A stretch of 63,985 bases of DNA, counting the filler, from an uncultured archaeon (lineage in GTDB: Archaea > Nanobdellota > Nanobdellia > Woesearchaeales > CAIVOO01): the NCBI GenBank assembly GCA_903842985.1. It is 6 parts of 6 records of this genome, joined end to end, with 100 filler letters (N's around TTAATTAATTAA, not from the genome) between each part and the next. Parts side by side here need not be neighbours in the genome. Positions count along the whole stretch, not along the records: positions 1 to 22,324 come from CAIMOB010000023.1; 5 more parts are not named here. The stretch is one strand, 5' to 3'. Below, one piece after another: positions 2-22,323 of the stretch. The stretch's first letter is position 1, and the number at the start of each line of letters is the position of its first letter. The translations under genes and the position numbers were made by a program. Below the pieces are notes generated by a model. That model had not been told where the DNA came from. It made no database searches and saw only the letters and a program-made list of their open reading frames with translations.

Positions 2-1021
2 ATAATCTATCGCGAAAGATTTCTAACTTACAAGCCGCTGATGAAGATTAACGACAAGCCAATGGTGCAGTACCCTATCGATGCATTCAACTCTTACAAA
101 CGGACTTCTGGAGAAGTTTATGTGGTGGGGCCTGAAGAGATTGGGCGAAAAGTAACTGGCTACAAAAAGCTGATTAAACAGGGAAACTCGCTTAGCGAGA
201 CAGCGTGCCTTGGCTTGGATGCAATAATTTCAGACCACAGGGATGAAGAACTTGAAGTAATTGTTTCAACATGCGACATTGTAAGGCTTACGCCAGGCGC
301 AATAAATCATTTTGAAGAATCCTGCAAAAAAATTGATGATTACACAATGATTCTGCCTTTTATTGACAAGAAATACATTAAAACAGGCGGAATTTTTGGC
401 TGGCGCCCGGGCCTTCGCTGCGAAGAAGGAAGGTTCAGGATTGCAAATGTGTCAAAATTGCGCATTAACAGAGATTTTGCAGAGATTATCAGAAAGGGTG
501 CAGCTCATTTAAGAAATGAAGGGCCTGCTGATGAAACAATGTCAAGGATAATGGAAGAAGCAGATAATATTTACCTTACAAGAAGATGGCTTAACCCAAT
601 GAATTGGTATTATCTGATAAAGTATTTCAAAGAAGATGGAAATTCCTTGGCTTTAAAATGGTGGAACAATACGCTTAGCATAACTGACCTTGAAAAAGCA
701 GGAAATCAGAATGTAAGCAAATTTGCATCAAACATTGACGCAAAAGTAAGAATAGCAACGGTAGAAAAGCCCGAATTAGCTGAAGACATTGATGCATTGG
801 CAGACTGGAGGGCGTTGAGAAAGCCGAAGTTACGGGATTATTTGAGGACTGTTGGAGAATCCACATTAATGGGCGCTTCAGGCTATGCAGCAATTTCGAA
901 TTATGACAATCTTAAGTTGTTTTTGCCTTCGCTCGCCATTTTTCTTTTGCTTGGAGAGCAGGCAAAGAAAGACACATCAATGCTCTACAGGGCAGGCAAG
1001 CTCAGTAATCCTTCAGATTAG
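2..1021 (+). CDS. Nucleotidyltransferase-like (MobA/NTP-transferase fold) protein, 5'-truncated, with C-terminal hydrophobic segment
   Basis: Frame is open from base 2. YKPLMKINDKPMVQYPIDAF resembles the K-L--I-GKPM--Y motif; also STCD and late DID motifs. Confidence 0.55.
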   Translation: MIYRERFLTYKPLMKINDKPMVQYPIDAFNSYKRTSGEVYVVGPEEIGRKVTGYKKLIKQGNSLSETACLGLDAIISDHRDEELEVIVSTCDIVRLTPGAINHFEESCKKIDDYTMILPFIDKKYIKTGGIFGWRPGLRCEEGRFRIANVSKLRINRDFAEIIRKGAAHLRNEGPADETMSRIMEEADNIYLTRRWLNPMNWYYLIKYFKEDGNSLALKWWNNTLSITDLEKAGNQNVSKFASNIDAKVRIATVEKPELAEDIDALADWRALRKPKLRDYLRTVGESTLMGASGYAAISNYDNLKLFLPSLAIFLLLGEQAKKDTSMLYRAGKLSNPSD

Positions 1022-2519
1022 ATTCAATCTTCTGCCCAACCTGCTCTTTGACATTCATTGCTGTTTTCTTGCCAATAAGCTGGGCTAATGTCAGAAGATC
1101 TGCTTTTTTAACATCCCCGATGTCTTTTATCTTTGAATTGAACATCTTCCTTGCCCTGACTCTTCCGATTCCCTTCAGCTTCAGAAGCGCAATCAGCTCT
1201 TCCTTGACGCCATGCTCAATCCTTATCCTCATCTTTATTATTTCGCTAACAAGCCTGTGGAATTTCATCAGCCCTGCAAGAACCTCTGCAGAATAAAGAA
1301 GCCAGTCAGCGCTGTCAAGCTTAGCCCTTGTTTCGCCGGGCCTTATGCCATACTTCTCAAGCAGATGCTCCTCGTCGCTTTCATTTACCCAGTCCTCAAA
1401 GAACATGGCTGTTTTGACTGAGTTGACAAAATCATAATAATCCGGCTGGAATTCAGGCGGCTCCTCGACGAGAAGCTTCGCCCTCAGCAGCTTCTCCTGC
1501 ACCAGTTCATAGTCTGCGTTTTTCACCTTGAGCAGCGGCCTTATCTCAAGCTGGTTTGTAATCAGCTGCAACAATGCAAAATCATTAAGCCCAATGTTTA
1601 TTGCCCTTGCCATGCCTAAAATAAGGTTGTTGGCAGTCAGCGGGTCTATGTAAAGTTCTGCAACCCTTTTGCCAACCAATGTCGCTTCTATCCTTTCACT
1701 GTCAATCTCGTCAGCAGAGGCAAATTCCTCGTTTTTCATCTTGATGAAGTTGAATTCAAGCAGGAGATTCAGCATCTTTATTATTATTTTATGCAGTTTT
1801 TTCATGTCGCCGAACTGGAATGCCCAGAATGTCTTTTCAAAGAAGCTGAATATCTCTTTTTTTGTGTTCACGAAATCTGTTGCAATCAGCGAAAGCAGGT
1901 ATGTCCTCAGTACAGGCTCCACTGCAAGCTTCGAGTAAATCTCCTCTGGCTCGCCGCACACATATCTGTCATAAATTGCCTTTTTCTCGCCTTTTGTCGA
2001 TGCAATGCAGATTGCCTCGCCGTAATTGTCAAAGCTCGGCCTGCCTGCCCTTCCGCTCATCTGCATGTACTCAAGCACAGGAATCCAGGATGCGCCGAAT
2101 TCGCCGTCAAACCTTTTCAAGTCCTTCAGGATTGCCCTGAATGCAGGAAGGTCAACTCCCATCGCAAGCGTCGGCGTGCACGCAATGACTTTTATAAGCC
2201 CTTTCCTGAAATTCTCCTCGATCAATTCGCGCTGTTTGTGATGCAGGCCTGCATGATGAAATGCGGTTCCTTTCCTTATGCATCTTGCCAGCCTTTCGCA
2301 CTGCTTTGTGGGCTTTGCAAGCACCTCAAGAATTTTTTCAGCCAGCTCAGCCAGCTCCTTGCTTTCATCAAGTTTTTTTGCAACTTTCTCAGCAGTCGCC
2401 TCTGCGCTTCTCTTGCTTCCTACAAATATAAACGCCTGCTTTCTAATATTAATTGTATCCAATGCAATGTCTATTGCCGGCTCCTTTGTCACGATTTTAA
2501 TTTCCTGCTTTTTTGCCAT
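1002..2519 (-). CDS. hel308: Hel308/Ski2-like helicase, C-terminal portion only (RecA2, winged-helix, ratchet, HhH); RecA1 with Walker A/DExH absent
   Basis: IFVGSKR (motif IV), AFHHAGL, TPTLAMGVDLPA, QMSGRAGRP, RIEHGVKEEL, LKGIGRVRAR. Confidence 0.85.
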   Translation of the reverse strand: MAKKQEIKIVTKEPAIDIALDTINIRKQAFIFVGSKRSAEATAEKVAKKLDESKELAELAEKILEVLAKPTKQCERLARCIRKGTAFHHAGLHHKQRELIEENFRKGLIKVIACTPTLAMGVDLPAFRAILKDLKRFDGEFGASWIPVLEYMQMSGRAGRPSFDNYGEAICIASTKGEKKAIYDRYVCGEPEEIYSKLAVEPVLRTYLLSLIATDFVNTKKEIFSFFEKTFWAFQFGDMKKLHKIIIKMLNLLLEFNFIKMKNEEFASADEIDSERIEATLVGKRVAELYIDPLTANNLILGMARAINIGLNDFALLQLITNQLEIRPLLKVKNADYELVQEKLLRAKLLVEEPPEFQPDYYDFVNSVKTAMFFEDWVNESDEEHLLEKYGIRPGETRAKLDSADWLLYSAEVLAGLMKFHRLVSEIIKMRIRIEHGVKEELIALLKLKGIGRVRARKMFNSKIKDIGDVKKADLLTLAQLIGKKTAMNVKEQVGQKIESNLKDY

Positions 2520-2754: not shown

Positions 2755-3186
2755 ATGACATTTTTAGCTGATTTAATAACAAACAAAATATTCATTGCAG
2801 GCATTCTCACTTACATAATAACGCAGTTCCTGAAATTTGTGATATACTCGATAAAAGCAAAAAGAATACTGCCTGCAACATTACTTGCATTCGGCGGAAT
2901 GCCAAGCTCGCATACCTCTGTTGTCTTTGCGCTCCTGACATCAATTTACCTGACTGAAGGCGTTTCATCGCTTTTTGTTGTGATGCTTTTCATTGCCGTT
3001 GTAATTATCCAGGACATATCTGTTGGAAGAATGCATACACAGCGGAACACACAAATAATAAACAGGCTGCTTGGTTTCATAAAATTAAAGCAAAGCCCGA
3101 TAAAGGAATTCGCAGCACATACCCCGCTTGAAATATTTATTGGCGCAGTTATTGGAATTTTAGTTGCATTGGCGGTATTCCTATGA
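2755..3186 (+). CDS. Divergent PAP2 family (DUF212) membrane protein
   Basis: GGMPSSH and HTPLEI-GA--G motifs, hydrophobic helices. Confidence 0.85.
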   Translation: MTFLADLITNKIFIAGILTYIITQFLKFVIYSIKAKRILPATLLAFGGMPSSHTSVVFALLTSIYLTEGVSSLFVVMLFIAVVIIQDISVGRMHTQRNTQIINRLLGFIKLKQSPIKEFAAHTPLEIFIGAVIGILVALAVFL

Positions 3187-3731
3187 GCATCTATCTGTTA
3201 ATTGTCCAGTGCCTTTATTTCTTCCTTCCAGCTTATCTTGCAAACGCTTCCCCTGTTTTTGGGAAGCATTTTCTGAAAGAGTTTGCCTATCCGATTGATT
3301 TAGGCAAGAAATTCAGGGGGAGGCAGATGCTGGGGAGCCACAAGACATGGAGAGGGGTTATTTTTGCAATTTTTACAGGCTCAATTATCTTTTACGCCCA
3401 GCAGATTCTTTACCAGTATTCTTTTTTCCAGAAGATAAGCCTGATTGATTATTCGCAGTCAACGGTCTGGCTCGGCTTCTTCCTTGGCTTCGGCGCCATA
3501 TTCGGCGATGCTGTAAAAAGCTTCTTCAAGAGAAGGATTGGCATCAAGGCAGGCGGAAGATGGATTCCATTTGACCAGCTTGACTATGTTGTTGGCGCAT
3601 TGCTGTTCGGAGCGCTGTTTTATGTTCCGTCGTGGCAGGCAATATCAATAATTGTTGTTTTCAGCTTTTTCCTGCACATAATGGCAAATCATTTTGCATA
3701 TTATCTTGGAATCAAGAAAGTCAGGTGGTAA
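3183..3731 (+). CDS. carS: CDP-archaeol synthase
   Basis: PAYLANASPV, PIDLGK, GSHKTWRG, GAIFGD-SFFKRR, PFDQLD motifs. Confidence 0.9.
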   Translation: MSIYLLIVQCLYFFLPAYLANASPVFGKHFLKEFAYPIDLGKKFRGRQMLGSHKTWRGVIFAIFTGSIIFYAQQILYQYSFFQKISLIDYSQSTVWLGFFLGFGAIFGDAVKSFFKRRIGIKAGGRWIPFDQLDYVVGALLFGALFYVPSWQAISIIVVFSFFLHIMANHFAYYLGIKKVRW

Positions 3732-4947
3732 TCTTGAACTGCTCAAGGGCAGTTCTGTGCAATCTATTCTGTCTCAATTTAACAATTGCCCTTGTCTCTA
3801 TCTGCCTTACTCTTTCTCTTGTAATTCCAAAATGCTTTCCAACCTCTTCCAGGGTATACTCTTTGGGGTAACCAATGCCAAATCTCATTCTGACTATTTC
3901 TTCATCCCGTACCCTGGGTAATTTTTTTAGCTCTTTTTCCACTCCTTCACTCATGTCATTCTTTTCTGCCTCAAGCGCGGGATTTTCAGCTTTTTCATCT
4001 GCAATTAAATCACCCAGCTCTGTTTCGCTGTCACTAAGCATTTCCTGCAGTGAAGAAGTATTCCTTGTTTTCATTGATAAAAATATCCTATTGACCTTTT
4101 CTTCGGTAAACTCTGCCTTTTCTGATATTTCTTTGATAGTTGGCTCCTTTCCAAGGTTTCCTCTTAGTTCATCCCTAATTTTTTCTATCCTCCTTATATC
4201 ATCATACGCATGGAGCGGTATCCTAATTTCATTGCTTTCTGAAAGCGCCCTCTTAATGGCCTGATTCACCCAATATCTTGCATATGTGACGAACTTAGCT
4301 TTTCTATATCTGAATTTTTCAGCAGCTTTCATAAGCCCGATGTTTCCTTCCTGAATCCGATCCGAAAGAGACATAGTTGTTGAATAATATTTCCTGGCAA
4401 TAGATATGGCAAACCTCAGGTTATTTACAACAAGATAATTCACTGCTTCACTAAATTCTTTTTCAGCAGCTTCATATTCTGTTTCTAAAGTCAAACTTCT
4501 TTTTTCCTTCTGATTTTTAATTGCATTCAAATGCTTCAGGTTTTTTCTTGCTCTGCTTATTCTTTTTCCAGCCTCTCTCTCTTCTTTGCGTGTTAGAATT
4601 TCATGATATGCCTGCTGCATATAAAGCGAGACTGAATCCTCGCTGTCAGAATATAATTTTTCCTTCTTTTTTGGAAATTCCAGAATTTTTGCCTCTGGCA
4701 TACCTCTTATTAGGTCAATTTCATCATCAATTGAGCCACCAAGCTGCAGAATTGCCTCGTTCAGCTGCGCAATAGCCTCAATTCCATCAAATTGCTTCTG
4801 TTTTCCCAGGTAATTGCGAAGACCTCTGTCGCCGGTTACCAGTTCAGCCAAGGTGTATTCTCTGTCAGGGTCTATATCTATGATTTTTTCCTTCAGCTTC
4901 CTTATCCGTTCCTCGTTTTTGGACCCTTCTAAATCATAAGCTTCCAT
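3721..4947 (-). CDS. rpoD: Sigma-70 family RNA polymerase sigma factor (RpoD/SigA-like, regions 1.2-4)
   Basis: DSVSLYM-LTRKEE (1.2), NLRFAISIARKY, IQEGNIGLMKAAEKF, TYARYWVNQAI (2), IRIPLH and KEPT (3), TLEEVGKHFGITRERVRQIE (4.2); GGAGG 6 nt before the ATG. Confidence 0.95.
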   Translation of the reverse strand: MEAYDLEGSKNEERIRKLKEKIIDIDPDREYTLAELVTGDRGLRNYLGKQKQFDGIEAIAQLNEAILQLGGSIDDEIDLIRGMPEAKILEFPKKKEKLYSDSEDSVSLYMQQAYHEILTRKEEREAGKRISRARKNLKHLNAIKNQKEKRSLTLETEYEAAEKEFSEAVNYLVVNNLRFAISIARKYYSTTMSLSDRIQEGNIGLMKAAEKFRYRKAKFVTYARYWVNQAIKRALSESNEIRIPLHAYDDIRRIEKIRDELRGNLGKEPTIKEISEKAEFTEEKVNRIFLSMKTRNTSSLQEMLSDSETELGDLIADEKAENPALEAEKNDMSEGVEKELKKLPRVRDEEIVRMRFGIGYPKEYTLEEVGKHFGITRERVRQIETRAIVKLRQNRLHRTALEQFKITT

Positions 4948-4961
4948 CAATAGCCTCCAAT

Positions 4962-5420
4962 CTACGCGTTAAGAGAAATCAGGAACATTATTATGCTGAA
5001 TACAAGAAACCAGTTGTAGTGCTTGAATGCCCTGAACAGTATCTCTGCTCTTTTTTTCCTGATTATTTTCTCTGCGAACAGCGTTCCTTCAGGAAGCCCG
5101 TAGATAAATGCCAGCGCAGACTGGATGAAAAACGCCTCGCTGCCCACATTGCTTGACAGAAGCACGAATCCAAGAACCAAGTACTCCATTTCAAACAGGT
5201 AAAAAAATGCCAGCATGAATACATTCAGCGCAACTAGGTAAAGGTCCACGCCAAAATAAATCATCAGCGCAACCATCATAATCAGAAGAATTGTCTTGAA
5301 CCACTTGAAATAATTTCTTCCTGCCTTGAGCTCCTCAGGCGCAATGAATGCCAGCACAACACCAGCAAAAAGCCCCAGGAAAACAACGATTAAATCAAGT
5401 ATTATTGTCAGCTCATTCAT
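4962..5420 (-). CDS. Hypothetical multi-pass membrane protein
   Basis: 152-aa hydrophobic ORF; start overlaps the stop of the dph2 fragment. Confidence 0.7.
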   Translation of the reverse strand: MNELTIILDLIVVFLGLFAGVVLAFIAPEELKAGRNYFKWFKTILLIMMVALMIYFGVDLYLVALNVFMLAFFYLFEMEYLVLGFVLLSSNVGSEAFFIQSALAFIYGLPEGTLFAEKIIRKKRAEILFRAFKHYNWFLVFSIIMFLISLNA

Positions 5421-5677: not shown

Positions 5678-5714
5678 AGTCAAGAATGAATATCAACTAT
5701 TTAAAAATCTTTCT

Positions 5715-9210: not shown

Positions 9211-12200
9211 TTAGGACTGGACAGCCAAAAATGTAACATTTCCTTTGTAATTCTGCTGGATTATCCCTGTTGGGGTGTAAAGCTTATAATAAAATGAGAC
9301 ATTCTTGTTCATCTGGAGATTGCTTTTAGCAACAACATACACTCCTGTGAGTATGTTGTCTACTGTAAATGCCTTATCAATTGCCCAATGCACTTTTGTA
9401 ACATTTATTTTGTAGCTTGATTTTGTCTGCCCCGTAAGGTTTACCCCTTTCATTTTTACGCTGATATTAACATTTCCCAAATTCTTGACCCATACAGGCC
9501 AGCCAGATGTCGAGGCATTTACTGTCTTCCCCGCAACCACAGAGCTGAAGTTGATTGGCGCATTTGTCATGCTGATTGAGATTAATGTGTTGACTGTGAA
9601 ATTCCCTTTTTTCGGCACTGCCTTGTTGCCCAGGGTATTGTTTGCATAAACAGTGTAGTTGTATTTTCCTGCTGTTGTTGACGTGTTAAATTTGTCATAA
9701 TACCACTTGTTTGTTCCGTCAGCAGTCATTGTTCGGTTTAATCCGCTTATTTCTACCCAAACCCTGCTTATAGCACCTATCTTCGTGGTGACATTTGCGG
9801 TGATATTATTCTTTTCCCCAAAATTAACAGGGTCAGGCACATCTGTGAGAGAGTTTATTTTTGGCAGCAGTATGTTTACAATTGTTGCATTTCCACTAGC
9901 CATATAATAATTTGAAAAAATATTTGAACCGTTGTCAATTGCCCTGCACCTGAAGTTAACGCCTGATTGGGGCTTCTCTTCAGAGATGTCCCAGACAAAA
10001 GACCCGCCCTTTTTATGCGTGCCAATCTCTCTCCACTCTTTCAGCGTAGCTGATGTATTGACTTCTGTTATCGTTACATTATCAGTCCAGCATTCTCCAT
10101 ATTTATTTACATTATCAACGGGAGATAAAATACATCCAACATCGAATGAACGGGTTGTATTAAATAAATTGGCGCGGTAACTGACTGCACCATGTGAATA
10201 TTCGTCTATAAAATCTGTTCCTAGCACCCCTTTTAATACTGGTCCGGTTATTACTTTGCCGCTTGTTATATTCCTGTATTTTATAGTTATATTGTCCTGC
10301 GGGTCAGCTGCATCAGCAATCCTGAGGGCATAGTTAAATGAAACTTTTACATATTTTGGGCTGTCAGTGATATTAACGGTACTATTCCATCCTCCTGAAA
10401 TTGCTGAACCTGTTTTCGAACTGTTAAGGTTAAGTTCAACATTCAGGCAGTAGCCGCCTGTGCAGTTTCCACTCAATTCCCTTTTCCCAACTGCCTGCGC
10501 AGGAGATGCAGTTCCGTACATGTCATCCTTGTAAACAAAGCCATCAGTGCCTGACTCGAATTGCGCATTAACTACTTTTTCATCGCCAATTAAAGGTGCA
10601 TAAAGCGCCTCTATATGGTAAGTGATTGTGTCATTATCTGGGTCAGTGCTTCCGCCGCAAACAAGCGCAATGGTTGTATTAAATGCCTTGTTGCAGCTTC
10701 CGCCATTGCAGGTTAAACTTGTTGGAGTGGTTGGAGGATGGTTTATTGAATTGAAATAAGATGACACAGAACTATTGACATTGCCAGTAATATCTTTTGC
10801 AATTATTTTGAAATTATAAGTCCCTAATTTTGAGGTATTTGTAAAGATGCCTTGATACAATTTTGTTGTTGTGTTAAACAATAGCTGTATTACCTGCGTG
10901 CCGTCGCCAGGAATAGTCACATTTGCCTTCACAGTGGAAATAATTCCGTTGTCAGTGACATTTGCACTTATGAGAACTGGTGATGATTGGTTGAAATTTT
11001 TTCCAGCAGGAACTAATTTAGTGACTGCCGGAGGTATGCTGTCTATCACAGTTGTGTTTGCAGAGGAATTCACCGCGTCAATCAGGCGGTGAGTTAGATC
11101 GTAATAAGTGCAGTTTGCTGTATTGTTTATTTTAGTTCGATTGGAAACTGTTTTATTTATTTGCACGCTGAAGGAAACAAAGCCATTGTTGCCTGCGTAT
11201 AAAACAGGGAAGCTCCACGCAATAATATTGCCGAGTTGAGTCCCTCCTTGCCCGATACTATGAATTATCGTTCCTTTTGGAATTTTGTCTTTAATTACCG
11301 CATTTATCACGTCTTCTGGAGAGAAGACTCTTTGCGCAAAAGTAACATCAAGGTAACCCCTATTTGCACGCAATGCAGAAATATAATACAATCCTTCTGA
11401 AGATGTTTGGATTATTCCTGGGTAGGCGTCTGAAACCTTGTTGTTTGTTACCTGCCTTATGTCCCATGTTTTTCCGTCGTTGAATGAGCTTGCTACAAAA
11501 ACCTCATTCGAAGTCCTGTTTACATTAGGCAATCCAACCTCTGAGCTGTTTAATAACCCCACCCAGCCTATGTAAATATTGCCTTGGGTATCTCTGTTGA
11601 GAGATGTTTCATAATTGTAAATGTTATTGTTTGTTACCTGTGTTTTATTTTTGTCAAGTATGCCTGGCACAAGCGGAGTTTTTGTCTTGGCAAACCATAT
11701 CTGCTGATGATCTGGATTTGCCGGAGCCCACGCAAAATAGAAAGTGCCATCTTTATACATTACATCATCATCTACATCCATGTAAGTATTGTTTGTGATT
11801 GCAATCCTGTTTGACCAAGTTCCTTTGTAGTTTGAAGCATTCCTTATGTATATTTCAGTGAAGGAAGCATTGCTCCCTTCACTAGCTTCGTATGTAGTGT
11901 AATAATTTCCTGCAGAGTCTTCTGTTATTACTGGTTCCCATTCGCTTATCGTAGGCGTTGTTGTGACTGCAGACGGCTCGCTCCAAGTTAAGCCGTCATC
12001 GCTCGAGTCAACCAGCCATACATCATTATACCCAGACAATGTTTCATGGGAATAAACTATTATAATTTTGCCTGCAGAATTAACAAAGATGTTTGGCCAC
12101 ATATCATTCTGAACTTCATCTGTTACCTTTATTGGACTGGACCAGTTCGATCCCAGATTTGTCGATCTTACCACATAAATATCATTATTACTTCCCGGAC

Positions 12201-15123
12201 TGGCATGATATGCAATGATAAACGTGCCTGCTGGTGATTCTACCATCTGGGGCGAATCTTTTGGAAAAGTGCTGTTTGTTACAAACTTAAAATCTTGGAA
12301 ATCCAGCAGGATTATTCCTCCTGTTTTATTAGTTGTGTAGTTTATAGTATAATTCAGAATACTCCCAACCTGCACTGGGTCAGGATGGTCATATTTTCTG
12401 ATGTTCATTTTTGGCTCAACAACAGAAAATGAAGTCTTTTCAGTGTTGTTGACATTGCCTGAGGTGTCATTGGCAATTATCCTAACTAAATATTTTCCTA
12501 AATATTGGGTTTTATTAAAGGTTTTTTCGTAGCGCGCAGTTATTGCATTAAAGCTAAGCCGGATTAAATTTGTGCCATTGTTTGGCTTAGTGATGTTTGC
12601 CAGCACAGTGTCAACACCAACATTGTCCTTCACTGAAACAAGTACCAGGACACTGGCGTTGATGTTATGAATTGTCCCGTTAGTTAAAAGATTGGTTACG
12701 TTTGGCGGAATTGTGTCTTTTACTTTTACTGTGAAATTCCCTTTCTTTGGCACTGCCCTGTTGTTTGAAGTGTCATTTGCGTAAACAGTGTAGTTGTATT
12801 TTCCTGCTGTTGTTGACGTGTTAAATTTGTCATAATACCATCTGTTTGTTCCGTCTGCAGTCATCGTTCTGTTTAATCCCTTTATGTCTATCCAGACCTT
12901 ACTGACAGCCTTTTTGTCTGTGACATTTGCAGTGAAATTTATTTTTGCACCGTAATCAACAGGGTCAGGCGCGTCGCTGATTGAATTTATTATTGGCGGT
13001 GTTGTGTCCTTTACTGTTATGTTAATTTTTATTGATCTTTTGTTATTCTTCGTGTCATTAACAGAAATGTTTATCCATCTTATCCCGACAGGAATCAGAG
13101 TATTGTTCTGCAGCAAACCACTTGTTTTGTTAATCTTGAAATAAGTCGTGTCATTCACCCTGTACTGGCTAATGCCGCTTGGGTCAGTTGCATTAACTTT
13201 GTAGGAATATGCAGTTGCAAATTCAATTGTCTGGTTCTTTGGCGTCTGAACCCATGTCGGAGCTCTTGTATCTCTTGTCGTCACATTTATTTTTATGCTT
13301 AATTTGTTGTCGTTTGTGTCATTCACAGAAATATTAATCCACTTCACTCCAACAGGCAATCCAGTATTGTTCTGTAACACTCCAGTTGTCTTGTCAATCT
13401 TGAAATAAGTTGTGTCATTCACCCTGTACTGGCTGATTCCAGAAGGATCAGTTGCATTCACATCGTAATAAAGCGGGCTTCCTAATTCAACTATTCTGCT
13501 TGTCGGCGTCTGAACCCATGTCGGCGGAGTCTTATCTATTGTTATTCTCAAATATCCTGCTGCTCCTGCTCCGCCATTGTAAGTACCACTAAATGTTCTT
13601 CTTGCACCTCCGCCGCCTCCGCCGTATGTGCTTCCAGGATTTCCATTGCCTGCAGTCGTTCTTCCTGCTCCTCCATTTCCGCCTAATTGCGAAGTTCCTG
13701 TTCCAGCAGTACCTCCGGTAGCATTGCCACCTGCTCCTGTTGAGCCTGCTCCTCCGCCACCGCCCCCACTAGCTGCGCCAGTTTGAGTTCCGCCATTGCC
13801 TCCCGCATACCTTACAGTTCCTTTAGAACTTGCTACCGTGCCACCTGCACCACCTGTTCCTCCAGTTTGTCCTCCGCTTCCACCTGAAGCATTAACTGTC
13901 AAGCCGTTTCCAAAGTAAGTTGGGTTTCCATTTGCGCCATTTCCTGTTCCTCCTGCAACAGATGCAGCAACCACAACTGCATAATTAGAACCAGGAGTTA
14001 CTGTCACATTTGCCCTTGCGTAAGCGCCTCCTCCCCCTCCACCAGCATAACCGTTTGTGGTCCTGCCCCCACCAGCGCCTCCTCCACCCCACGCTTCAAC
14101 CAATACTTTTGTCACGCCTGCAGGCGCAGTCCAAGTGCCGCTGGAGGTGTAGTTGACCACCAATGTAGGATCAACTATGTAGTCAAATTCAACTGTTCCG
14201 CCAACGATTTTCAGGTCAAAGGTTTTCTGACTTCCATTCAGGCCTGTCAGGAATATTTGGTATTTTTTGTCTTCAGAAATCACTCCAAAGTCAGCGATCT
14301 TGACATCGGAGTTCTTTTCATAAACCTCAACCCTTCCTGATTCGTTGCTCTTTGCGTAAATCGTAATATCATTACCATTAGTAAGAGGCATTTCAAATTT
14401 GGCTCTTAAGTAGTCTCCTTTGGGAATTAATGCATATCTGTAGTTCCTATTTTTGACCAGCCAATAAACATCTTCAACAAAATTCCTGTTTTCGTCTAAA
14501 TGTGACGCCTTGGTTATCTTAATTGTTTCAGCAAATGCGGGGTCCTCGCGCGTCAGAATAAATTCATAATCTTCTCCAGGGATTATGTCCATTACCTTTT
14601 TCCAGTCGCCGCTGCATTTTTGCAGTTCAGAATCCCAGTCCTTGCACTTGTAAAGCTCATTACCAATCGCGGTTACAGTGACAGTCGCGTTTGTGAAATC
14701 TACCCCTGTCGGGTCTATGACATAGACCTGAATCAATTCATCCATTTCCCCAACATCTTCTATCTTCAGGTTCTTTATTGTCTGGACATCAGCATTTTTG
14801 AATTCTATTTTTTTGACAGGCGTCTTCTCAGGCACAAGTTCAAGATTGTAAATTCCTGTGGGATTTTCTGTAGACATCATCTGCACGCCGTTTACCATCT
14901 GGGTTGTAGCGCTTTTGTTGCCAACTTTTTCATTCAGCCTCATTTGCGCAGGTACAACCCCTCCTCCAATGTCCTGTATCTCAATTTTCATTTCATTGAC
15001 AATTGGCTCGGCTGCTTTCAGCGATAAAGTGAATCTGAATGCCCAGAAGAACGCTAAAATAAGAATGAAGGTTATTATTAGAGGTAACAGCATTTCATCT
15101 TTGTTACCCTTATTTTTGTCCAT
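9211..15123 (-). CDS. Giant (1970 aa) surface adhesin-like protein
   Basis: N-terminal hydrophobic segment, Gly-rich block, DTxAPxW...NATDPSGI Ig/cadherin-like repeats, Asp-box (SxDxGxTW) propeller, DUF11-like domain, C-terminal WxL/pilin-like module. Confidence 0.85.
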   Translation of the reverse strand: MDKNKGNKDEMLLPLIITFILILAFFWAFRFTLSLKAAEPIVNEMKIEIQDIGGGVVPAQMRLNEKVGNKSATTQMVNGVQMMSTENPTGIYNLELVPEKTPVKKIEFKNADVQTIKNLKIEDVGEMDELIQVYVIDPTGVDFTNATVTVTAIGNELYKCKDWDSELQKCSGDWKKVMDIIPGEDYEFILTREDPAFAETIKITKASHLDENRNFVEDVYWLVKNRNYRYALIPKGDYLRAKFEMPLTNGNDITIYAKSNESGRVEVYEKNSDVKIADFGVISEDKKYQIFLTGLNGSQKTFDLKIVGGTVEFDYIVDPTLVVNYTSSGTWTAPAGVTKVLVEAWGGGGAGGGRTTNGYAGGGGGGAYARANVTVTPGSNYAVVVAASVAGGTGNGANGNPTYFGNGLTVNASGGSGGQTGGTGGAGGTVASSKGTVRYAGGNGGTQTGAASGGGGGGAGSTGAGGNATGGTAGTGTSQLGGNGGAGRTTAGNGNPGSTYGGGGGGARRTFSGTYNGGAGAAGYLRITIDKTPPTWVQTPTSRIVELGSPLYYDVNATDPSGISQYRVNDTTYFKIDKTTGVLQNNTGLPVGVKWINISVNDTNDNKLSIKINVTTRDTRAPTWVQTPKNQTIEFATAYSYKVNATDPSGISQYRVNDTTYFKINKTSGLLQNNTLIPVGIRWINISVNDTKNNKRSIKINITVKDTTPPIINSISDAPDPVDYGAKINFTANVTDKKAVSKVWIDIKGLNRTMTADGTNRWYYDKFNTSTTAGKYNYTVYANDTSNNRAVPKKGNFTVKVKDTIPPNVTNLLTNGTIHNINASVLVLVSVKDNVGVDTVLANITKPNNGTNLIRLSFNAITARYEKTFNKTQYLGKYLVRIIANDTSGNVNNTEKTSFSVVEPKMNIRKYDHPDPVQVGSILNYTINYTTNKTGGIILLDFQDFKFVTNSTFPKDSPQMVESPAGTFIIAYHASPGSNNDIYVVRSTNLGSNWSSPIKVTDEVQNDMWPNIFVNSAGKIIIVYSHETLSGYNDVWLVDSSDDGLTWSEPSAVTTTPTISEWEPVITEDSAGNYYTTYEASEGSNASFTEIYIRNASNYKGTWSNRIAITNNTYMDVDDDVMYKDGTFYFAWAPANPDHQQIWFAKTKTPLVPGILDKNKTQVTNNNIYNYETSLNRDTQGNIYIGWVGLLNSSEVGLPNVNRTSNEVFVASSFNDGKTWDIRQVTNNKVSDAYPGIIQTSSEGLYYISALRANRGYLDVTFAQRVFSPEDVINAVIKDKIPKGTIIHSIGQGGTQLGNIIAWSFPVLYAGNNGFVSFSVQINKTVSNRTKINNTANCTYYDLTHRLIDAVNSSANTTVIDSIPPAVTKLVPAGKNFNQSSPVLISANVTDNGIISTVKANVTIPGDGTQVIQLLFNTTTKLYQGIFTNTSKLGTYNFKIIAKDITGNVNSSVSSYFNSINHPPTTPTSLTCNGGSCNKAFNTTIALVCGGSTDPDNDTITYHIEALYAPLIGDEKVVNAQFESGTDGFVYKDDMYGTASPAQAVGKRELSGNCTGGYCLNVELNLNSSKTGSAISGGWNSTVNITDSPKYVKVSFNYALRIADAADPQDNITIKYRNITSGKVITGPVLKGVLGTDFIDEYSHGAVSYRANLFNTTRSFDVGCILSPVDNVNKYGECWTDNVTITEVNTSATLKEWREIGTHKKGGSFVWDISEEKPQSGVNFRCRAIDNGSNIFSNYYMASGNATIVNILLPKINSLTDVPDPVNFGEKNNITANVTTKIGAISRVWVEISGLNRTMTADGTNKWYYDKFNTSTTAGKYNYTVYANNTLGNKAVPKKGNFTVNTLISISMTNAPINFSSVVAGKTVNASTSGWPVWVKNLGNVNISVKMKGVNLTGQTKSSYKINVTKVHWAIDKAFTVDNILTGVYVVAKSNLQMNKNVSFYYKLYTPTGIIQQNYKGNVTFLAVQS

Positions 15124-15367: not shown

Positions 15368-16171
15368 TCATTTCTTTGCAATTGTCCTGTTTACATCATC
15401 TTTTTTTATGTCATCAACCACGAAAAAATTCCTGATTTTGGGCCACAGCCTTGTGTCTTTGTACTGCTCGCCAATCAGGCATCCGGCAAGTTTTTTGTAT
15501 TCAACAGAAACATTCCTGCCAGGCGCGTGCATCACAGCAGGCTTTGTCAGCGAAAGCGCCTCGAGCACCATCTCATCCTCAGGGATAATGCTGACAACAG
15601 GCACATCCACTGACTGCTCAATGTCATCAAGCGTCAGTTCGTATTTTTTTCCTCTGACCCTGTTGAGCACAATTCCTGTTATCGGCGTCTTCTTCATCTT
15701 TGCAACCTTCACAGCCCTCATTGTGCAGCTCAGTGTCGGATAGTCCGGACTGCTCACAACAAGCAGTTCGTCAGCAGCAATCATTGTTGCAAGCATCTCT
15801 TCGTTCAGCGTCGGGCTGGAGTCTATCAGGATTACATCATACTTGTATCTGAGGTGGTTTATCTTTCGCTTGAGGCTGAACGGGTCTATCTTGCACTTCG
15901 GCACAAGCGAGCCGGCGATTATGTCAAACCCAAGCTCGTGCTTCTGTATTGCTTTCGGCACATCTACCTTGCTTGCAAGCACGTCGTGAAGCGTGTACTG
16001 CGGATTCACAATCCCAAGATGAATCCCAAGGTTCGGCGCTGTGAAATTCGCATCCACCACCAAAACCTTCTTTCCAAAATCATTTGCAAGCGATGCTGCA
16101 AGATTTGATACTGTTGTTGTCTTCCCTACGCCTCCCTTTATCGCGATAATTCCGATAACTCTTCCGTTCAT
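15368..16171 (-). CDS. minD: MinD/ParA family ATPase
   Basis: KGGVGKTT deviant Walker A, VVDAN, LIDSSP, GIVLNRV. Confidence 0.9.
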   Translation of the reverse strand: MNGRVIGIIAIKGGVGKTTTVSNLAASLANDFGKKVLVVDANFTAPNLGIHLGIVNPQYTLHDVLASKVDVPKAIQKHELGFDIIAGSLVPKCKIDPFSLKRKINHLRYKYDVILIDSSPTLNEEMLATMIAADELLVVSSPDYPTLSCTMRAVKVAKMKKTPITGIVLNRVRGKKYELTLDDIEQSVDVPVVSIIPEDEMVLEALSLTKPAVMHAPGRNVSVEYKKLAGCLIGEQYKDTRLWPKIRNFFVVDDIKKDDVNRTIAKK

Positions 16172-19100
16172 TTTCCATACACCTCATTTAAGCTGTTTAT
16201 CATTTTTTCTTTGATTTCATTTCTGCTTTCAGCAGATTTTTTCAGCATTATTTTTTCTTTTGGCTGCGCTTCAGCCTTCTTTTTCTCCTGCTTTTTTTTG
16301 TATTCAATATAGTTGTAGACTCTTTCCTTCATTATCTGCCTGAATTTGCTTTCTTCCTCTTCCTTCTTGTCTGGTTCAGGCAGTTTTTTCTCTTCGATTT
16401 TATGAACAGGAATATCTTCCTTCTTTTTCACGCTCGTTATTGTGTTCAACCTAATTTCTTTCTGCGGCATTTCAGAAATCAGCCTCGTTACCCTATTCTT
16501 AATCTTTTTTCCCGCCCTTTTCACAAAAGCGAAGTTGGAAGGCTTTTTGATTGTAATCACTTCCTTGCCGAATGATACTCTGTCCTTGTCGTTGAAGTAA
16601 TTCACCATCATAAATAGTGCAACCGCAATCAAAACTGCTTCAGCTATGTTTAGCAGCAGGCTGATGTTGCTGGCAATTGCGTTTTTGAATATGGTCAAGC
16701 CAGTCACAACAGGCTGAATGATAATACCAATTAAGAACAGCACAACTGCGAAAACACCAATCCATCTGTACCTCACTGCTTTTTTGATTAACTGCCCCCT
16801 CTTCTTGTGTACAACAATTTCTTTGCTAACAAATATTTTGTTTCTATTTGCAAACTGCACAAGCGACAGCAATGTTATGCTTAGCACGACAAGAATGAGA
16901 ATCGTTTCCGAGTTTTTCACTGCCAATGGAACGACTTTGCCGGCGAATACAGAAAATCCAGTAGTCATTGGCCTTATTAATAATATCACCGCCAAAACCA
17001 GCAAGCTGCCAAAGATTGCGGCTTTTGAATAGCTCTCGAGCCACTTTTTCACTTCCTTTGCCCTTATCCTCTTATGCGAATATCTGATTGCTCCAAACAC
17101 AATAAATGGGATCATGAACAGCGCCAAGATAAGGTAATACCAGATATTTTTCGGCTTTTTAACAACAGTCGGAAGTTCTTTTGTGACATTCTCCTGAGCT
17201 TTTGTAACATTAGCCACAGGAGGTATTTTTTCCTTTTGTTTTTCTTTCAGTTCATATAACTTGAAACACCATCTGTCAGTGTCTGGCCCGATTCCTTCAA
17301 TTTTTGTATCAATTACGCCATTTTCATCCAAATCAAGCGTTTTGTTCATTGCATTTTCAAATTCAATATTGTATTTACCAACAATCAAAACGCTTTTGTT
17401 TCCTTTAAAGCTTGTAAGAATTGCTTCATACTTCTTTTCATGTGAATAAAAGTAAACCTTTTGGTTTAATTTGAGACAGGTGCTGATTATAAGCGACTCT
17501 TCTTTTGATTCCAGCTTGGTTGCACCGCCTGCTCCGCCACCGCCACCAGTATGAGCAGTGCCTTCGCCACCGCCTCCGCCACCCGATGGCTGCGTTGGAG
17601 CTGACTCCTGCTTTATTGCAAATGCAGAGAATCCAGTTACTGTCGCCGTGAAGTAATCTCCTGTTTTGTTCTGCGTTGATGTCAGTGCAGCAAAGCTTGA
17701 TAGGCACCTTTGGCTTGCGAAGTCCCAGTTGCTGCACTTGTACACCTTTAGATAATTTTCATTGGTGTAACTCAGCCCGCTGTAACTTAAATAAACAACT
17801 GCGTTTGTAAATGTGTACGAATTGTTAACGGAATAAACAACAATGTACCCAGGATATGTCGTGTTCCTTTCCATTCCGAAAATCCTATTATTGTTATGGG
17901 AAAGATTAACCCCATTTAACTTAACCATGAATTTTCCAGTGAATGCATAGAACTCAATGTCATAAAGATAATTTGCGATGTCGATGTTCGTGAAGTTACC
18001 TGTACTTGAAGTGTTGTCTTTGATATTTGTTCCGGCATAATAGAATATGATTTCCGAATTGATTCCTGCGCCATTGTGGTTTATGACAGTTGCATTCAAG
18101 TAAATAACTGGCTGGATAATGAAGTATTTTACAGCGCTTGCAGTATCCCTAGCTGTGTTGTTTGCATAGAATGTTACATTGTATCTTCCTGCCAACGTAG
18201 GTGTGGCATAATTGTAAACTGCTGCATTTGCCAGGCTGATTGTCTCAGTGCTTGAATTAGGCATTAGCACAACCGCCCACACCCTATCAAGATGGGCGTC
18301 GGTTGCGTTTATGAATAAGCTGACACTGGTGCCTGTTATTGCTACAAGCGGGGTTGCGCTTGCACTTTTTATCGTCGGCGGAATATGGGTGGTTGTCTTG
18401 AAGCTATATGCGCTGCTTGTTACGCAATTCTTATACGCATCGCAGCTTGTAACCTTGTAATAATATGTCTTGTTTGCCTGCAGCCCCGTCAGCATGTAAT
18501 CATGCGCAGTTACCAATGTCGCATTCCTGTAGCGAGTCCCCAAAGAAGTTGTCAATCCGTAATTGATTGTGGAGTTGGCATTTTCATTGGTATTCCAAAT
18601 AATGATTGCAGTTGAATTTGTAATTGTTGAATTGTGCACGCTTGAAATAACTGGCGGAGTTGTGTCTCTGACATTTACATATATCCTTGAAGACCTAACA
18701 TTATTGCGGGTGTCATTGACATATATGCGTATCCAATATTTTTTTACCTGCAGCCCAGTATTGTTTTGTATGACCCCTGTTGCTGGATTCATATCAAAGT
18801 TCGTCGTGTCATTAACCCAATATTGGCTAATTCCGCTTGGGTCTGTCGCGTTTACACGATAGTGGAACGCAGCGCCCCACTCAATGGTCTGGTTCTTCGG
18901 CGTCTGAAGCCATGCCGGCGGAGTTGTGTCTAATACAGCATTCGCATTTGTTTTGAAGCTGGAACCTGCATCTGTTCTGCAGTTATTGTATGCATCACAG
19001 CTTGATACATTGTAGTAATATGTCTTGTTCGCCTGCAGCCCGGTCAATGTGAAGCTATGGCTTAATGTTAGTGTGGCATTCCTGTAAAATGTTCCCAAGC

Positions 19101-22100
19101 TTGTTGTAATTCCATAATTAATTGTCGAGTTTGCCAGTTCATTTGTTGTCCAGCTTATGACTGCTGTTGTGTTTGTAACTGTTCTGTTTGTAACGCCGGT
19201 GATTGTTGGCGGAGTTGTATCTGCAAAGACAAAAGGCGTAGTGAAGCTGTACCCTACATCTGTTTTGCAGTTGCCTGAAGCATCGCAGCTTGTGACATTG
19301 TAGTAATATGTCATGTTTGGTTCGAGACCTGTCAGCGTAATTGTATGCGAAGTGACATGTGCAGCAGATACTGTGTAGCTGCCTAACCCAGTTGTATTCC
19401 CATAATTTACAGTTGAATTTGCATTCTCATCAGTGTCCCAGATAATAATTGCAGTTGAATTTGTAACAGTTGAATTGTGCACACTTGAGATTGTTGGAGG
19501 AGTTGTATCTGGGTTTGCATTTGTCGTGAAGCTGTATCCTCCATCTGTGTTGCAGTTGCCTGAAGCATCGCAGCTTGTGACATTGTAGTAATATGTCTTG
19601 TTTGCCTGCAGCCCGGTCAATGTGAAGCTATGGCTTAATGTTAGTGTGGCATTCCTGTAAAATGTTCCCAAGCTTGTTGTAATTCCATAATTAATTGTCG
19701 AGTTTGCATTCTCGTTTGTATTCCAGCTGATGTCAGCTGTTTCGTTTGTGACTGTTCCGTTTGTCACGCTGTTGATTGTTGGAGGAGTTGTATCTGCCCC
19801 AACAGTCACACTAATTATTATTGATAATTTATTATTAGATGTATCATTAACTGAAATATTCAGCCAGTAAAACCCAGTATTCAGTCCTGTTTTGTTCTGC
19901 AGCACTCCAGTTGTCTTGTCAATCTTGAATTTTGTTGTATCATTCACCTTGTACTGACTAATCCCAGAAGAATCTGTTGCATTCACCTTGTAGTAAAGCG
20001 GGCTTCCCAAAGGTATAATTCTGCTTGTTGGCGTCAGGTTCCAAGTCGGTGGAGTCGTATCCTGAACAGTAACGTTTATTATTATGCTTAGTTTGTTGTT
20101 AGTTGTATCATTGACAGAAATATTTATCCATCTTACTCCGACAGGCAGCAAAGTATTGTTCTGCAGCACTCCAGTAATCTCATCTATTTTGAAGTATGTT
20201 GTATCATTCACATTATACTTGTCAACAGCCACATTATCTGTTGCATTCACATCATAGTAAAGCGGATAGGTAAATTCAGTAGTCCTGCTTGTTGGCGTCA
20301 GGTTCCAATTCGGTGGAGTTGTGTCAGCAGTTATCAGGACACTATCATTTATCTTCAATGTCTGAAAGCCTGATTTGCTGCAGGTAACATTCCACTTGTA
20401 CATACCGCTGCCTGCAAATGTTCTGTTCTGCTCGTAAAGTTTTGTTGTTGCATTGTAAACCATTGCTTTGCTGAAATCACTGAAATTAATTGCGCAGTTT
20501 GCTCCGGTTATCGGATTTCCATTGTTTTTTCTTGTGTAGTTTGCGAAGAACTTTACCTGCTGGTTTTTGTATTTTGTCAGCCCTGCATAAGGCATTCCAG
20601 CGTCTGTCTGGTCCCAGATCATCATCTGGGAATTTCCTTGCGTGACAAATGAGCTGAAGTGTGTTACATTGAACACTGCAGTTCCGGTAAGTGGGTCATA
20701 AGACACATTTGAGCATATTTCTGGCGGGCAGAGCGCTCCATCCATGTAAACAAGAGGTGTAGCATCCCACGTCAGGTTCCTCATAGTTATTGTTGCTGAC
20801 GAATTGAAGCTCAAATCCAGGCCGAAATTAACAGTTACATTGTTGTTCGCAAGCAGGACATTCACATTGAAGTTTGCGCCCAATGCGTTTACGCAATTAT
20901 TCCATTGTATAATGTCTGTTGCAGGATTGTCCAGCATTGCTGTACCATTGCAGACATTTGTTATGTTTGGCAGATTGTTCCAGTTTGTTGTGTTGCCTGA
21001 AAAGTAAGAATCTTTTGGAGCGCCAGATATGTTGACTATTAATTTTCTGTCTGCGCTTTGGTTAAAATTATTCGAAAAGTCATATGGCCTGCAGCTCCAG
21101 TTATAGTTTCCACTTGCGAGGTTGTGCAGGGAATATGTGCTTTTGTTTGAAGTTCCGCCTACATTGACACTGTTGTTCAATATTGTGTTTAAGTAAAGCT
21201 CTATTTTATTCAAGCCATAATTGTCTGCTGCAGAGCAGTTGAATGTCACATTTCCGTCAATATCAATGACATTGTTGACGGGACTTGTTAATGCTATTGT
21301 TGGTTTTTTTGTGTCGCTGGTTGTAACGCTCATCTCTGCGCTCAGTAGGTTGTTGTATGTGTCATTCACATAAATCATCAGCCATTTCGTGCCGAGAGGC
21401 AGCAAGATTCTGTTCTCCAATACGCCAAGGCTCCTGTCAATCTTAAAATTAGTTGTATCATTCACCCTGTACTTGCTAATTCCAGACGGGTCTGTCGCAT
21501 TCAAGTCATAGAATAACGAATCGCCCCACTCAATTGTCTTGTTTTGCGGGGCTTCTACCCACACAGGAGCCTGCGTATCCCTCACTGTTATGTTGATTCT
21601 TGTGCTCAGCACATTGTTTTTGGTGTCATTCACGTAAATCCTGAGCCATCTGATGCCCACAGGAATCAGCGTATTGTTCTGCAGCAATCCGCTTGTCTTG
21701 TTAATCTTGAAATAAGTGGTATCATTCACCCTGTACTGGCTGATGCCAGAAGCATCTGTTGCATTCACCTTGTAGGAATACGCAGTTGCAAATTCAATGG
21801 TCTGGTTCTTCGGTGTCTGCAACCATGTCGGAGCTCTTGTATCTACTGTTGTTATGTTAATCCTTGAACTTAAAATATTGTTATGAGTATCATTAACATA
21901 AATCATCAGCCATCTGGTTCCCATTGGAAGCAATGTATTATTCTCAATTACGCCTGTGATTTTATTTACGGTGAAGTATGTTGTGTCATTCACCCTATAC
22001 CTGCTGATTCCAGACAGGTCTGTTGCATTTACATCATAATAGAATTCAGTTGTGTATTCGTGCGTTAAATTCTGCGGTGTCTGAATCCATGTTGGAGCTC

Positions 22101-22323
22101 TTGTATCCCTTGTCGTCACATTAATCTTCGTGGACAAAACATTATTCTTTGTGTCGTTGACATACAGCGTCAGCCATCTGATGCCCACAGGAATCAGCGT
22201 ATTGTTCTGCAGCAATCCACTTGTTTTGTTAATCTTGAAATAAGTGGTATCATTCACCCTGTACTGGCTGATGCCAGAAGCATCTGTTGCATTCACCTTG
22301 TAGGAATACGCAGCTGCAAATTC
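16168..22323 (-). CDS. Giant (>2050 aa, 5'-truncated) surface protein with Ig/cadherin-like and FN3-like repeats and a multi-TM anchor
   Basis: Open to the contig edge. Repeated NATDxSGISxYRVNDTT units, FN3-like ISWxTNExANSTINYG units, VTHFS/VTGFS domain ends, five TM segments and a charged tail. Confidence 0.85.
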   Translation of the reverse strand, partial: EFAAAYSYKVNATDASGISQYRVNDTTYFKINKTSGLLQNNTLIPVGIRWLTLYVNDTKNNVLSTKINVTTRDTRAPTWIQTPQNLTHEYTTEFYYDVNATDLSGISRYRVNDTTYFTVNKITGVIENNTLLPMGTRWLMIYVNDTHNNILSSRINITTVDTRAPTWLQTPKNQTIEFATAYSYKVNATDASGISQYRVNDTTYFKINKTSGLLQNNTLIPVGIRWLRIYVNDTKNNVLSTRINITVRDTQAPVWVEAPQNKTIEWGDSLFYDLNATDPSGISKYRVNDTTNFKIDRSLGVLENRILLPLGTKWLMIYVNDTYNNLLSAEMSVTTSDTKKPTIALTSPVNNVIDIDGNVTFNCSAADNYGLNKIELYLNTILNNSVNVGGTSNKSTYSLHNLASGNYNWSCRPYDFSNNFNQSADRKLIVNISGAPKDSYFSGNTTNWNNLPNITNVCNGTAMLDNPATDIIQWNNCVNALGANFNVNVLLANNNVTVNFGLDLSFNSSATITMRNLTWDATPLVYMDGALCPPEICSNVSYDPLTGTAVFNVTHFSSFVTQGNSQMMIWDQTDAGMPYAGLTKYKNQQVKFFANYTRKNNGNPITGANCAINFSDFSKAMVYNATTKLYEQNRTFAGSGMYKWNVTCSKSGFQTLKINDSVLITADTTPPNWNLTPTSRTTEFTYPLYYDVNATDNVAVDKYNVNDTTYFKIDEITGVLQNNTLLPVGVRWINISVNDTTNNKLSIIINVTVQDTTPPTWNLTPTSRIIPLGSPLYYKVNATDSSGISQYKVNDTTKFKIDKTTGVLQNKTGLNTGFYWLNISVNDTSNNKLSIIISVTVGADTTPPTINSVTNGTVTNETADISWNTNENANSTINYGITTSLGTFYRNATLTLSHSFTLTGLQANKTYYYNVTSCDASGNCNTDGGYSFTTNANPDTTPPTISSVHNSTVTNSTAIIIWDTDENANSTVNYGNTTGLGSYTVSAAHVTSHTITLTGLEPNMTYYYNVTSCDASGNCKTDVGYSFTTPFVFADTTPPTITGVTNRTVTNTTAVISWTTNELANSTINYGITTSLGTFYRNATLTLSHSFTLTGLQANKTYYYNVSSCDAYNNCRTDAGSSFKTNANAVLDTTPPAWLQTPKNQTIEWGAAFHYRVNATDPSGISQYWVNDTTNFDMNPATGVIQNNTGLQVKKYWIRIYVNDTRNNVRSSRIYVNVRDTTPPVISSVHNSTITNSTAIIIWNTNENANSTINYGLTTSLGTRYRNATLVTAHDYMLTGLQANKTYYYKVTSCDAYKNCVTSSAYSFKTTTHIPPTIKSASATPLVAITGTSVSLFINATDAHLDRVWAVVLMPNSSTETISLANAAVYNYATPTLAGRYNVTFYANNTARDTASAVKYFIIQPVIYLNATVINHNGAGINSEIIFYYAGTNIKDNTSSTGNFTNIDIANYLYDIEFYAFTGKFMVKLNGVNLSHNNNRIFGMERNTTYPGYIVVYSVNNSYTFTNAVVYLSYSGLSYTNENYLKVYKCSNWDFASQRCLSSFAALTSTQNKTGDYFTATVTGFSAFAIKQESAPTQPSGGGGGGEGTAHTGGGGGAGGATKLESKEESLIISTCLKLNQKVYFYSHEKKYEAILTSFKGNKSVLIVGKYNIEFENAMNKTLDLDENGVIDTKIEGIGPDTDRWCFKLYELKEKQKEKIPPVANVTKAQENVTKELPTVVKKPKNIWYYLILALFMIPFIVFGAIRYSHKRIRAKEVKKWLESYSKAAIFGSLLVLAVILLIRPMTTGFSVFAGKVVPLAVKNSETILILVVLSITLLSLVQFANRNKIFVSKEIVVHKKRGQLIKKAVRYRWIGVFAVVLFLIGIIIQPVVTGLTIFKNAIASNISLLLNIAEAVLIAVALFMMVNYFNDKDRVSFGKEVITIKKPSNFAFVKRAGKKIKNRVTRLISEMPQKEIRLNTITSVKKKEDIPVHKIEEKKLPEPDKKEEEESKFRQIMKERVYNYIEYKKKQEKKKAEAQPKEKIMLKKSAESRNEIKEKMINSLNEVYGK
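19007..19134. repeat. Near-identical intragenic repeat (128 bp; other copy at 19580-19707)
   Basis: Direct comparison shows one mismatch. Confidence 0.9.
21644..21796. repeat. Near-identical intragenic repeat (153 bp; other copy at 22172-22324, where the contig ends)
   Basis: Three mismatches by direct comparison; a related copy lies near 13075-13270 in the other adhesin. Confidence 0.9.

Follow-up and report, generated by a model that had tools for sequence, protein, structure and literature searches.

A sigma-70-like gene of bacterial RpoD-derived origin in the chromosome of a Woesearchaeales archaeon

Genes for sigma-70 factors have already been published from DPANN archaea, and the closest described system is the family fam00359 of Castelle et al. 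2021. According to the available parts of that paper (PMC8204110, Table S3), the family occurs in 39% of 196 Woesearchaeota genomes, in 38% of Pacearchaeota and in 38% of Aenigmarchaeota genomes, and its table row gives 0 for both signalP and TMHMM. The same parts state that misbinning was excluded, that no anti-sigma factor was found and that the function was left open; they hold no phylogeny, selection or clamp analysis of the family. Archaeal sigma genes are not treated in the available parts of PMC7289017 and PMC11606122, and a search of titles and abstracts, in which subscription journals were thinly covered, returned no functional study of DPANN sigma factors. Here we describe one such gene in a window of 63,985 nucleotides (the whole stretch of DNA that was analysed, filler included) from an uncultured Woesearchaeales archaeon. 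Like fam00359, it is a primary-sigma-like gene (K03086) which stands beside archaeal genes in a Woesearchaeota chromosome together with genes for TBP and TFB, and three proteins from genomes of the same order fall in clusters named Candidatus Woesearchaeota. The reported prevalence of 39% in 196 Woesearchaeota genomes compares with 135 of 401 genomes of the order in our count. Unlike fam00359 in general, this copy falls in a small clade marked by an N-terminal domain of its own (82 aa) and by an inverted pattern of constraint. It adds no new kind of gene to those already published; what is new is the order-wide count, the test of origin, and the selection, clamp, TFE and promoter comparisons.

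The sigma gene lies on a single contig, C23, which makes up positions 1-22324 of the window (22,324 bp; Table 1). As the original prediction had described, it overlaps carS tail to tail and is co-oriented behind a membrane-protein ORF and a Dph2 ORF; the overlap measures 11 bp. The membrane ORF gave zero matches in Pfam and NCBIfam, and the Dph2 ORF is likely the first gene of the sigma operon. A genome-wide motif count showed GAGGTG to be enriched upstream of the genes of this genome, and the TATA motif, as in the candidate promoter 5' of dph2, is enriched genome-wide as well. The encoded Dph2 consists of the N-terminal domain only, is 89% identical in a genome of the same genus (G001), and no second Dph2 match was found elsewhere in the assembly. 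Several further genes of the contig were recorded. A tRNA-Asn gene (2586-2659, -) lies two genes downstream of the sigma gene. The Hel308 helicase is seemingly split: its C-terminal 505 aa are encoded at 1002-2519 (-), its N-terminal half is matched by a 226-aa frame on another contig (G000 C15), and the N-terminal half alone also occurs in L036. A 326-aa ORF at 41-1021 (+) has an N-terminus which is nucleotidyltransferase-like by eye, with zero Pfam or NCBIfam matches. Two repeat-rich, surface-like proteins of about 2000 aa each (9211-15123 and 16168-22296, both -) have repeat units in common, and a MinD/ParA gene sits between them.

Table 1. Features of the sigma-70-like gene and its immediate surroundings, in positions of the window
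Feature	Position	Strand	Basis
carS (CDP-archaeol synthase), convergent with the sigma gene	3183..3731	+	Pfam/NCBIfam
Sigma-70-family gene, 408 aa, ATG start	3721..4947	-	ORF call, Pfam, NCBIfam, AlphaFold model
Region 4 helix-turn-helix, aa 347-393, -35 recognition helix intact	3769..3909	-	Pfam, alignment
Region 3, aa 251-324	3976..4197	-	Pfam
Region 2, aa 172-236	4240..4434	-	Pfam, alignment
Degenerate region 1.2 (aa 102-136); a short, non-conserved helical stretch follows	4540..4644	-	custom profile, model
Helical N-terminal domain private to the clade (aa 1-82), mildly acidic	4702..4947	-	sequence and model
GGAGG ribosome-binding site, 6 nt 5' of the sigma ATG	4954..4958	-	sequence
Membrane-protein ORF, 152 aa, upstream of the sigma gene	4962..5420	-	syntenic in orthologous loci
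Dph2 N-terminal-domain ORF, 88 aa	5417..5683	-	Pfam, NCBIfam
BRE/TATA-like archaeal promoter candidate of the dph2-membrane-sigma unit	5698..5714	-	inferred from sequence

Is this gene really archaeal? G001 carries a 66% identical orthologue in the same gene order, and a metagenome contig (L186) has a 62% identical orthologue between the same two neighbours. Two database proteins whose genomic context is not known (P0002 and P0121) also fall in the clade, of which five near-full sequences were seen. Both gene borders are bridged without joints by contigs from four public runs, all of one study which is possibly the source campaign. The best hit outside the clade is only 48% identical, and codon use is within the range of the genome (adaptation index at the 18th percentile of 321 long ORFs). 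The gene could in principle be a misassembly or a binning contaminant: its GC3 is low (0.36, the 9th percentile of the same 321 ORFs), and bacterial contaminant sigma genes are apparently present in other assemblies of the order, namely a canonical RpoD on a 6.6-kb contig (L005, G020:C67) and a bacterial-type RpoD of 95% identity on a contig of 2 kb (L026, G394:C136), both probable contaminants. We give this explanation next to no weight, since it is already refuted by a synteny that holds in divergent orthologues. The gene, bacterial and RpoD-derived in origin, genuinely belongs to an archaeal chromosome and, as originally argued, does not sit on a stray contig; neither a chimeric join at its borders nor a near-identical bacterial donor was seen. 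A search of viral contigs found no orthologue, and all phage matches to the protein are below 60% identity.

Regions 2, 3 and 4 of sigma-70 all exceed the Pfam curated cut-offs (50.7 bits for region 2 and 51.3 for region 4), so both the sigma2 and the sigma4 domain of the superfamily are present, and TIGR02937 scores 94.3 against a cut-off of 42.9. The AlphaFold model (mean pLDDT 80) matches sigma chains of bacterial initiation complexes in Foldseek at E 1e-15. Region 1.2 had no Pfam match, while a custom profile scored 18.7 bits at its position, where the best of 1000 shuffles reached 11.4; it is thus present but degenerate. The original prediction had noted the TRERVRQIE helix, the retained -10 glutamine and an altered melting dyad, and this reading holds: the -35 recognition helix is kept, Q229 is the equivalent of Q437, and the position of the WW dyad reads Y225-W226. 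All 142 comparators have WW here, as do 86 of the 128 archaeal copies (residue counts leave out L005, L026 and L135, suspected bacterial contigs); the clade orthologues have WW, WW and RL, so YW is not fixed in the clade. Within region 2, seven of the eight core-contact positions are the same as in E. coli sigma-70, and the flap contacts are also kept; for this scoring we took the functional roles of the E. coli residue positions as given. The N-terminus is not a recognisable region 1.1, as had been suspected. There was no Pfam match, the hhalign probability of 0.7% lay under the shuffled maximum, and a divergent region 1.1 was not supported, the sole lead being a sub-threshold Atlas value of 0.80. 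Nor was an alpha-CTD supported (hhalign probability 0.1%). Sequence and fold searches of the PDB gave no confident match for this domain, whose model has a pLDDT of 64, a best Z of 6.7 to unrelated helical proteins and zero Foldseek matches.

How does the protein compare with the sigma classes? The original description as a complete primary-type sigma-70 stands for its regions 2, 3 and 4, and for region 1.2 in degenerate form, but "primary-type" was overstated because its scores fall well short of the RpoD cut-offs (229.6 against 555 and 207.6 against 354, NCBIfam). It resembles group 1 (RpoD/SigA) in having regions 1.2, 2, 3 and 4, the fold, the -35 helix, the Q437 equivalent and most core contacts. 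It differs from group 1 in lacking a recognisable region 1.1, in its YW dyad, in scores below 60% of the RpoD cut-offs, in an identity of at most 48%, in having region 2 as its least conserved part, and in its cellular setting, because neither a cognate bacterial core polymerase nor an alpha-CTD was found in this 92.65% complete assembly. The available parts of PMC4598750 define group 2 by the architecture 1.2-2-3-4 without 1.1. Such RpoS-like factors are similar to our protein in this architecture and in being dispensable and patchy; unlike them, it is below the RpoS cut-off (TIGR02394, 171.7 against 378.7), as it is far below that of SigA, scores higher on RpoD models and has no cognate polymerase. 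We conclude that the protein is sigma-70-like in its fold and DNA-reading surfaces and fails strict primary (group 1) membership. A third likeness is to the fusions of region 4 with an alpha-CTD in Woesearchaeales, which are also bacterial promoter-reading modules in an archaeal context without a core; Pfam finds neither region 2 nor region 3 in these, and the alpha-CTD that they carry is absent from our protein. The fusions lie at L168:574-1722, L169:277-1710, L170:1465-2592, L173:1135-1698, L174:517-1707 and L179:1465-2430, several of them in an archaeal context, that in L179 among polymerase-subunit-like genes. The alpha-CTD cut-off was passed in 13 of the 401 genomes of the order, some of these being likely HhH look-alikes. 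An apparent co-occurrence of alpha-CTD with sigma matches (8 of 11) was set aside as circular: the fusions can match the sigma model in their own right.

The genome encodes one archaeal polymerase, TBP and TFB. Could the sigma factor be an accessory of this polymerase that takes the place of TFE on the clamp coiled coil and aids promoter opening? The archaeal clamp and the beta-prime clamp helices are homologous (35% identity over 117 aa), and the assembly, 92.65% complete, yielded no TFE; its one weak match reads by eye as an Lrp/AsnC-like protein. G001, however, has TFE and the sigma orthologue together, and TFE is present in 377 of the 401 genomes of the order, so replacement of TFE by sigma was rejected. 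Moreover, the clamp does not vary with the presence of sigma: its helices are near-invariant whether sigma is present (15 genomes) or absent (13 genomes), with sequence obtained from 28 of 30 loci, and they carry I, L and H where beta-prime has R275, E295 and A302, residues which we take to be needed for sigma binding. Co-folding of sigma residues 100-243 with the clamp region of the same genome gave 0.41 against 0.22 for one control, short of the required margin, and we weigh it neither for nor against an accessory. The promoters, like the clamp, point away from such a role. TATA/BRE elements were found in 228 of 542 upstream regions against 54 expected, and there was no excess of -35/-10 elements in the same regions: those with TTGACA numbered 19, the expectation being 11.7 (z 2.2; 15 for the reverse strand), those with TATAAT 54 (expected 60.8) and those with the bipartite motif 3 (expected 2.1). 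An accessory role therefore appears very unlikely. A clamp which is the same with or without sigma, the retention of TFE and promoters of the TATA/BRE type likewise make it unlikely that the archaeal polymerase uses the factor as a holoenzyme.

Three DNA sequences of the clade gave a dN/dS of 0.32 (95% 0.25-0.39) at a dS of about 0.7, compared with 0.12 for carS and 0.12 for the membrane gene, and the reading frame is intact in all five clade sequences. Judged from these alignments, the gene is maintained by purifying selection, but without the constraints of a working bacterial sigma factor. By region, dN/dS was 0.17 for the N-terminus, 0.45 (95% 0.26-0.74) for region 2, 0.26 for region 3 and 0.20 for region 4, so in the clade region 2 appears most relaxed and the private N-terminal domain most constrained. 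All 6 clade pairs show region 2 as less conserved than region 3, and none of the 1703 comparator pairs does so; the comparator pairs were taken at 60-70% identity, and pairs are not independent. The relaxed selection that would have counted against the original prediction was thus seen in part, mainly in region 2, within a gene that overall is under purifying selection. Might the gene then be a weakly selected relic of horizontal transfer, slowly eroding and capable at most of non-specific nucleic-acid binding? It has a dN of 0.23, about 4-5 times the 0.05 of its neighbours, region 2 and its dyad have drifted as described, only one of five other-genus genomes of the same taxonomic family has a sigma match, which is not an orthologue, and some copies in the order are split or broken (L020). 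Against this stand the overall dN/dS with its intact frames, the value for the N-terminal domain, and the persistence of homologues even in class members with genomes of some 0.5 Mb. We regard the relic as distinctly unlikely.

The family is widespread. With the RpoD C-terminal model, 135 of the 401 genomes of the order match at E 1e-5 or better and only 3 are above the model cut-off; these tallies, like the order-wide counts for the alpha-CTD, SLT domains and TFE, include genomes marked unpublished (7 of the 135 positives), which were kept out of the alignments and trees together with their four loci. At least two matches are listed for 58 of the 135 positive genomes; this counts matches rather than gene copies, and some are confined to region 4. 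In the class, 54 of 251 genomes match, 38 of the 54 being from other orders. A requirement for near-full cover of regions 2-4 kept 129 of 145 sigma ORFs and, after the removal of three suspected contaminants, left 126 copies from 91 genomes. Complete frames (n=115) range from 261 to 984 aa, with N-termini that are mostly unrelated, some keeping region 1.1 or carrying extra HTH domains. Tandem arrays were seen with four sigma genes in G045 and three in G179 (loci L134, L004 (G045:C3) and L089 (G179:C6)), and loci including L070, L091, L029 and L020 show further variants: additional region-4 repeats in one copy, MarR-like or HTH_3 domains joined to others, and one split copy. A 282-aa homologue of 39% identity (L187:1316-2164) lies on a short metagenome contig among unannotated neighbours.

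In the tree, copies from the same host family often group together and terminal branches are long (median 0.88 vs 0.30). One copy, L030 from a 249-kb contig, is placed with starred support inside a clade where the proteins with names come from Pirellulaceae, Kiritimatiellia and Calescamantes. A phylogeny against bacterial homologues had been proposed with the original prediction; in ours, a single origin was rejected with p-AU 0.002 (24 archaeal and 36 comparator rows, picked after the first tree had been seen), and the value became borderline, 0.051, without L030, L027 and five longer-branched rows and with fewer comparators. Most comparators are unnamed, and a bacterial name was found in the cluster for 6 of the 10 looked up. 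These results support at least two acquisitions by the family, and further ones are plausible.

Such a history raises another question. Is the protein an effector which is delivered into a bacterial partner, where it would use region 2.2 to bind the host core and compete with the sigma of the host or redirect it? The seven retained core-contact residues would suit this role, and a family which is patchy, multi-copy, long-branched and repeatedly captured has a pattern that may be typical of host-interaction genes. The available parts of Castelle et al. (PMC8204110) suggest that some Woesearchaeota may be episymbionts of bacteria, and a 3581-aa protein of Candidatus Omnitrophota, a small-celled lineage, contains four sigma-70 core-like stretches (P0228). 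The genome also encodes three lytic-transglycosylase (SLT) domains (G000:C40:8026-8379, C39:111-515 and C4:23170-23484), one of which ends a 665-aa membrane-anchored protein. The SLT domain is present in 209 of the 401 genomes of the order, yet its presence is independent of that of sigma (71/135 vs 138/266, p 0.92), and we discarded this link. Furthermore, the protein has no export signal, no delivery route was seen, the gene sits among housekeeping genes, and region 2 has a dN/dS below 1, so that positive selection is not demonstrated; a bacterial host for Woesearchaeota is itself only suggested in the available parts of PMC8204110 and PMC11606122. We consider delivery as an effector unlikely for this gene, and the broader proposal, that Woesearchaeota repeatedly take rpoD from bacteria and turn the gene products into cross-domain effectors which hijack or jam the RNA polymerase of a bacterial host, doubtful. 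Of the three functions originally offered, an accessory to the polymerase is disfavoured by the clamp, the promoters and TFE, whereas a regulator and an effector are both still candidates.

We favour, at a probability of roughly 0.45, an exapted, polymerase-independent DNA-binding regulator acting inside the archaeon. In this reading the bacterial RpoD-derived sigma-70, which is fixed in an archaeal operon and kept by purifying selection, would be expressed from the putative TATA promoter 5' of dph2. A look-up of RNA data listed none for the locus, which tells nothing about its expression. In the available parts of the literature, DNA binding by free sigma is masked by region 1.1 (PMC4598750), and free B. 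subtilis sigma-A binds -10 DNA specifically with low selectivity (PMC3035472). Without a recognisable region 1.1, the DNA-binding surfaces of our protein would be unmasked; it may bind DNA via the region-4 helix-turn-helix with the help of region 2, and the private N-terminal domain may supply dimerisation or a partner contact. Consistent with such a regulator, only 1 of 129 family members has a signal- or membrane-like segment, and the -35 helix is the best-kept functional surface across the 126 sigma proteins of the order, with a mean identity to E. coli of 0.87 compared with 0.64 for core binding, 0.65 for melting and 0.67 for the flap contacts. The comparators reach 1.00, 0.91, 0.88 and 0.91 for the -35 helix, core-binding, melting and flap surfaces, and as best matches to the query their conservation is inflated. 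The relaxed region 2, the unchanged clamp and the constrained new N-terminal domain fit the same reading, as do the extra HTH domains on some sigma proteins of the order and the other promoter-reading modules that the lineage keeps without a core (6 sigma4 and alpha-CTD fusions among the 11 alpha-CTD proteins examined). Other results speak against a regulator. The 542 upstream regions of the genome hold no clear target signal, and no recurring neighbour, partner gene or regulon emerged among 375 neighbouring ORFs. The kept core and flap contacts also count against it, because a pure DNA binder would not need them. Finally, region 4.2 is only 59-79% identical within the clade, and the dN of region 4 equals the level of region 2 (0.29 vs 0.28), dS being also high in region 4.

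Roughly one in three Woesearchaeales genomes retains a factor whose polymerase it lacks. The comparative results narrow the options, with a polymerase that shows no adaptation to sigma, a TFE that is not replaced and at least two origins of the family. If the effector outcome were true, it would also point to bacterial hosts for Woesearchaeota, and if these proteins do act as cross-domain effectors, the sigma genes would be both weapons and records of host identity.
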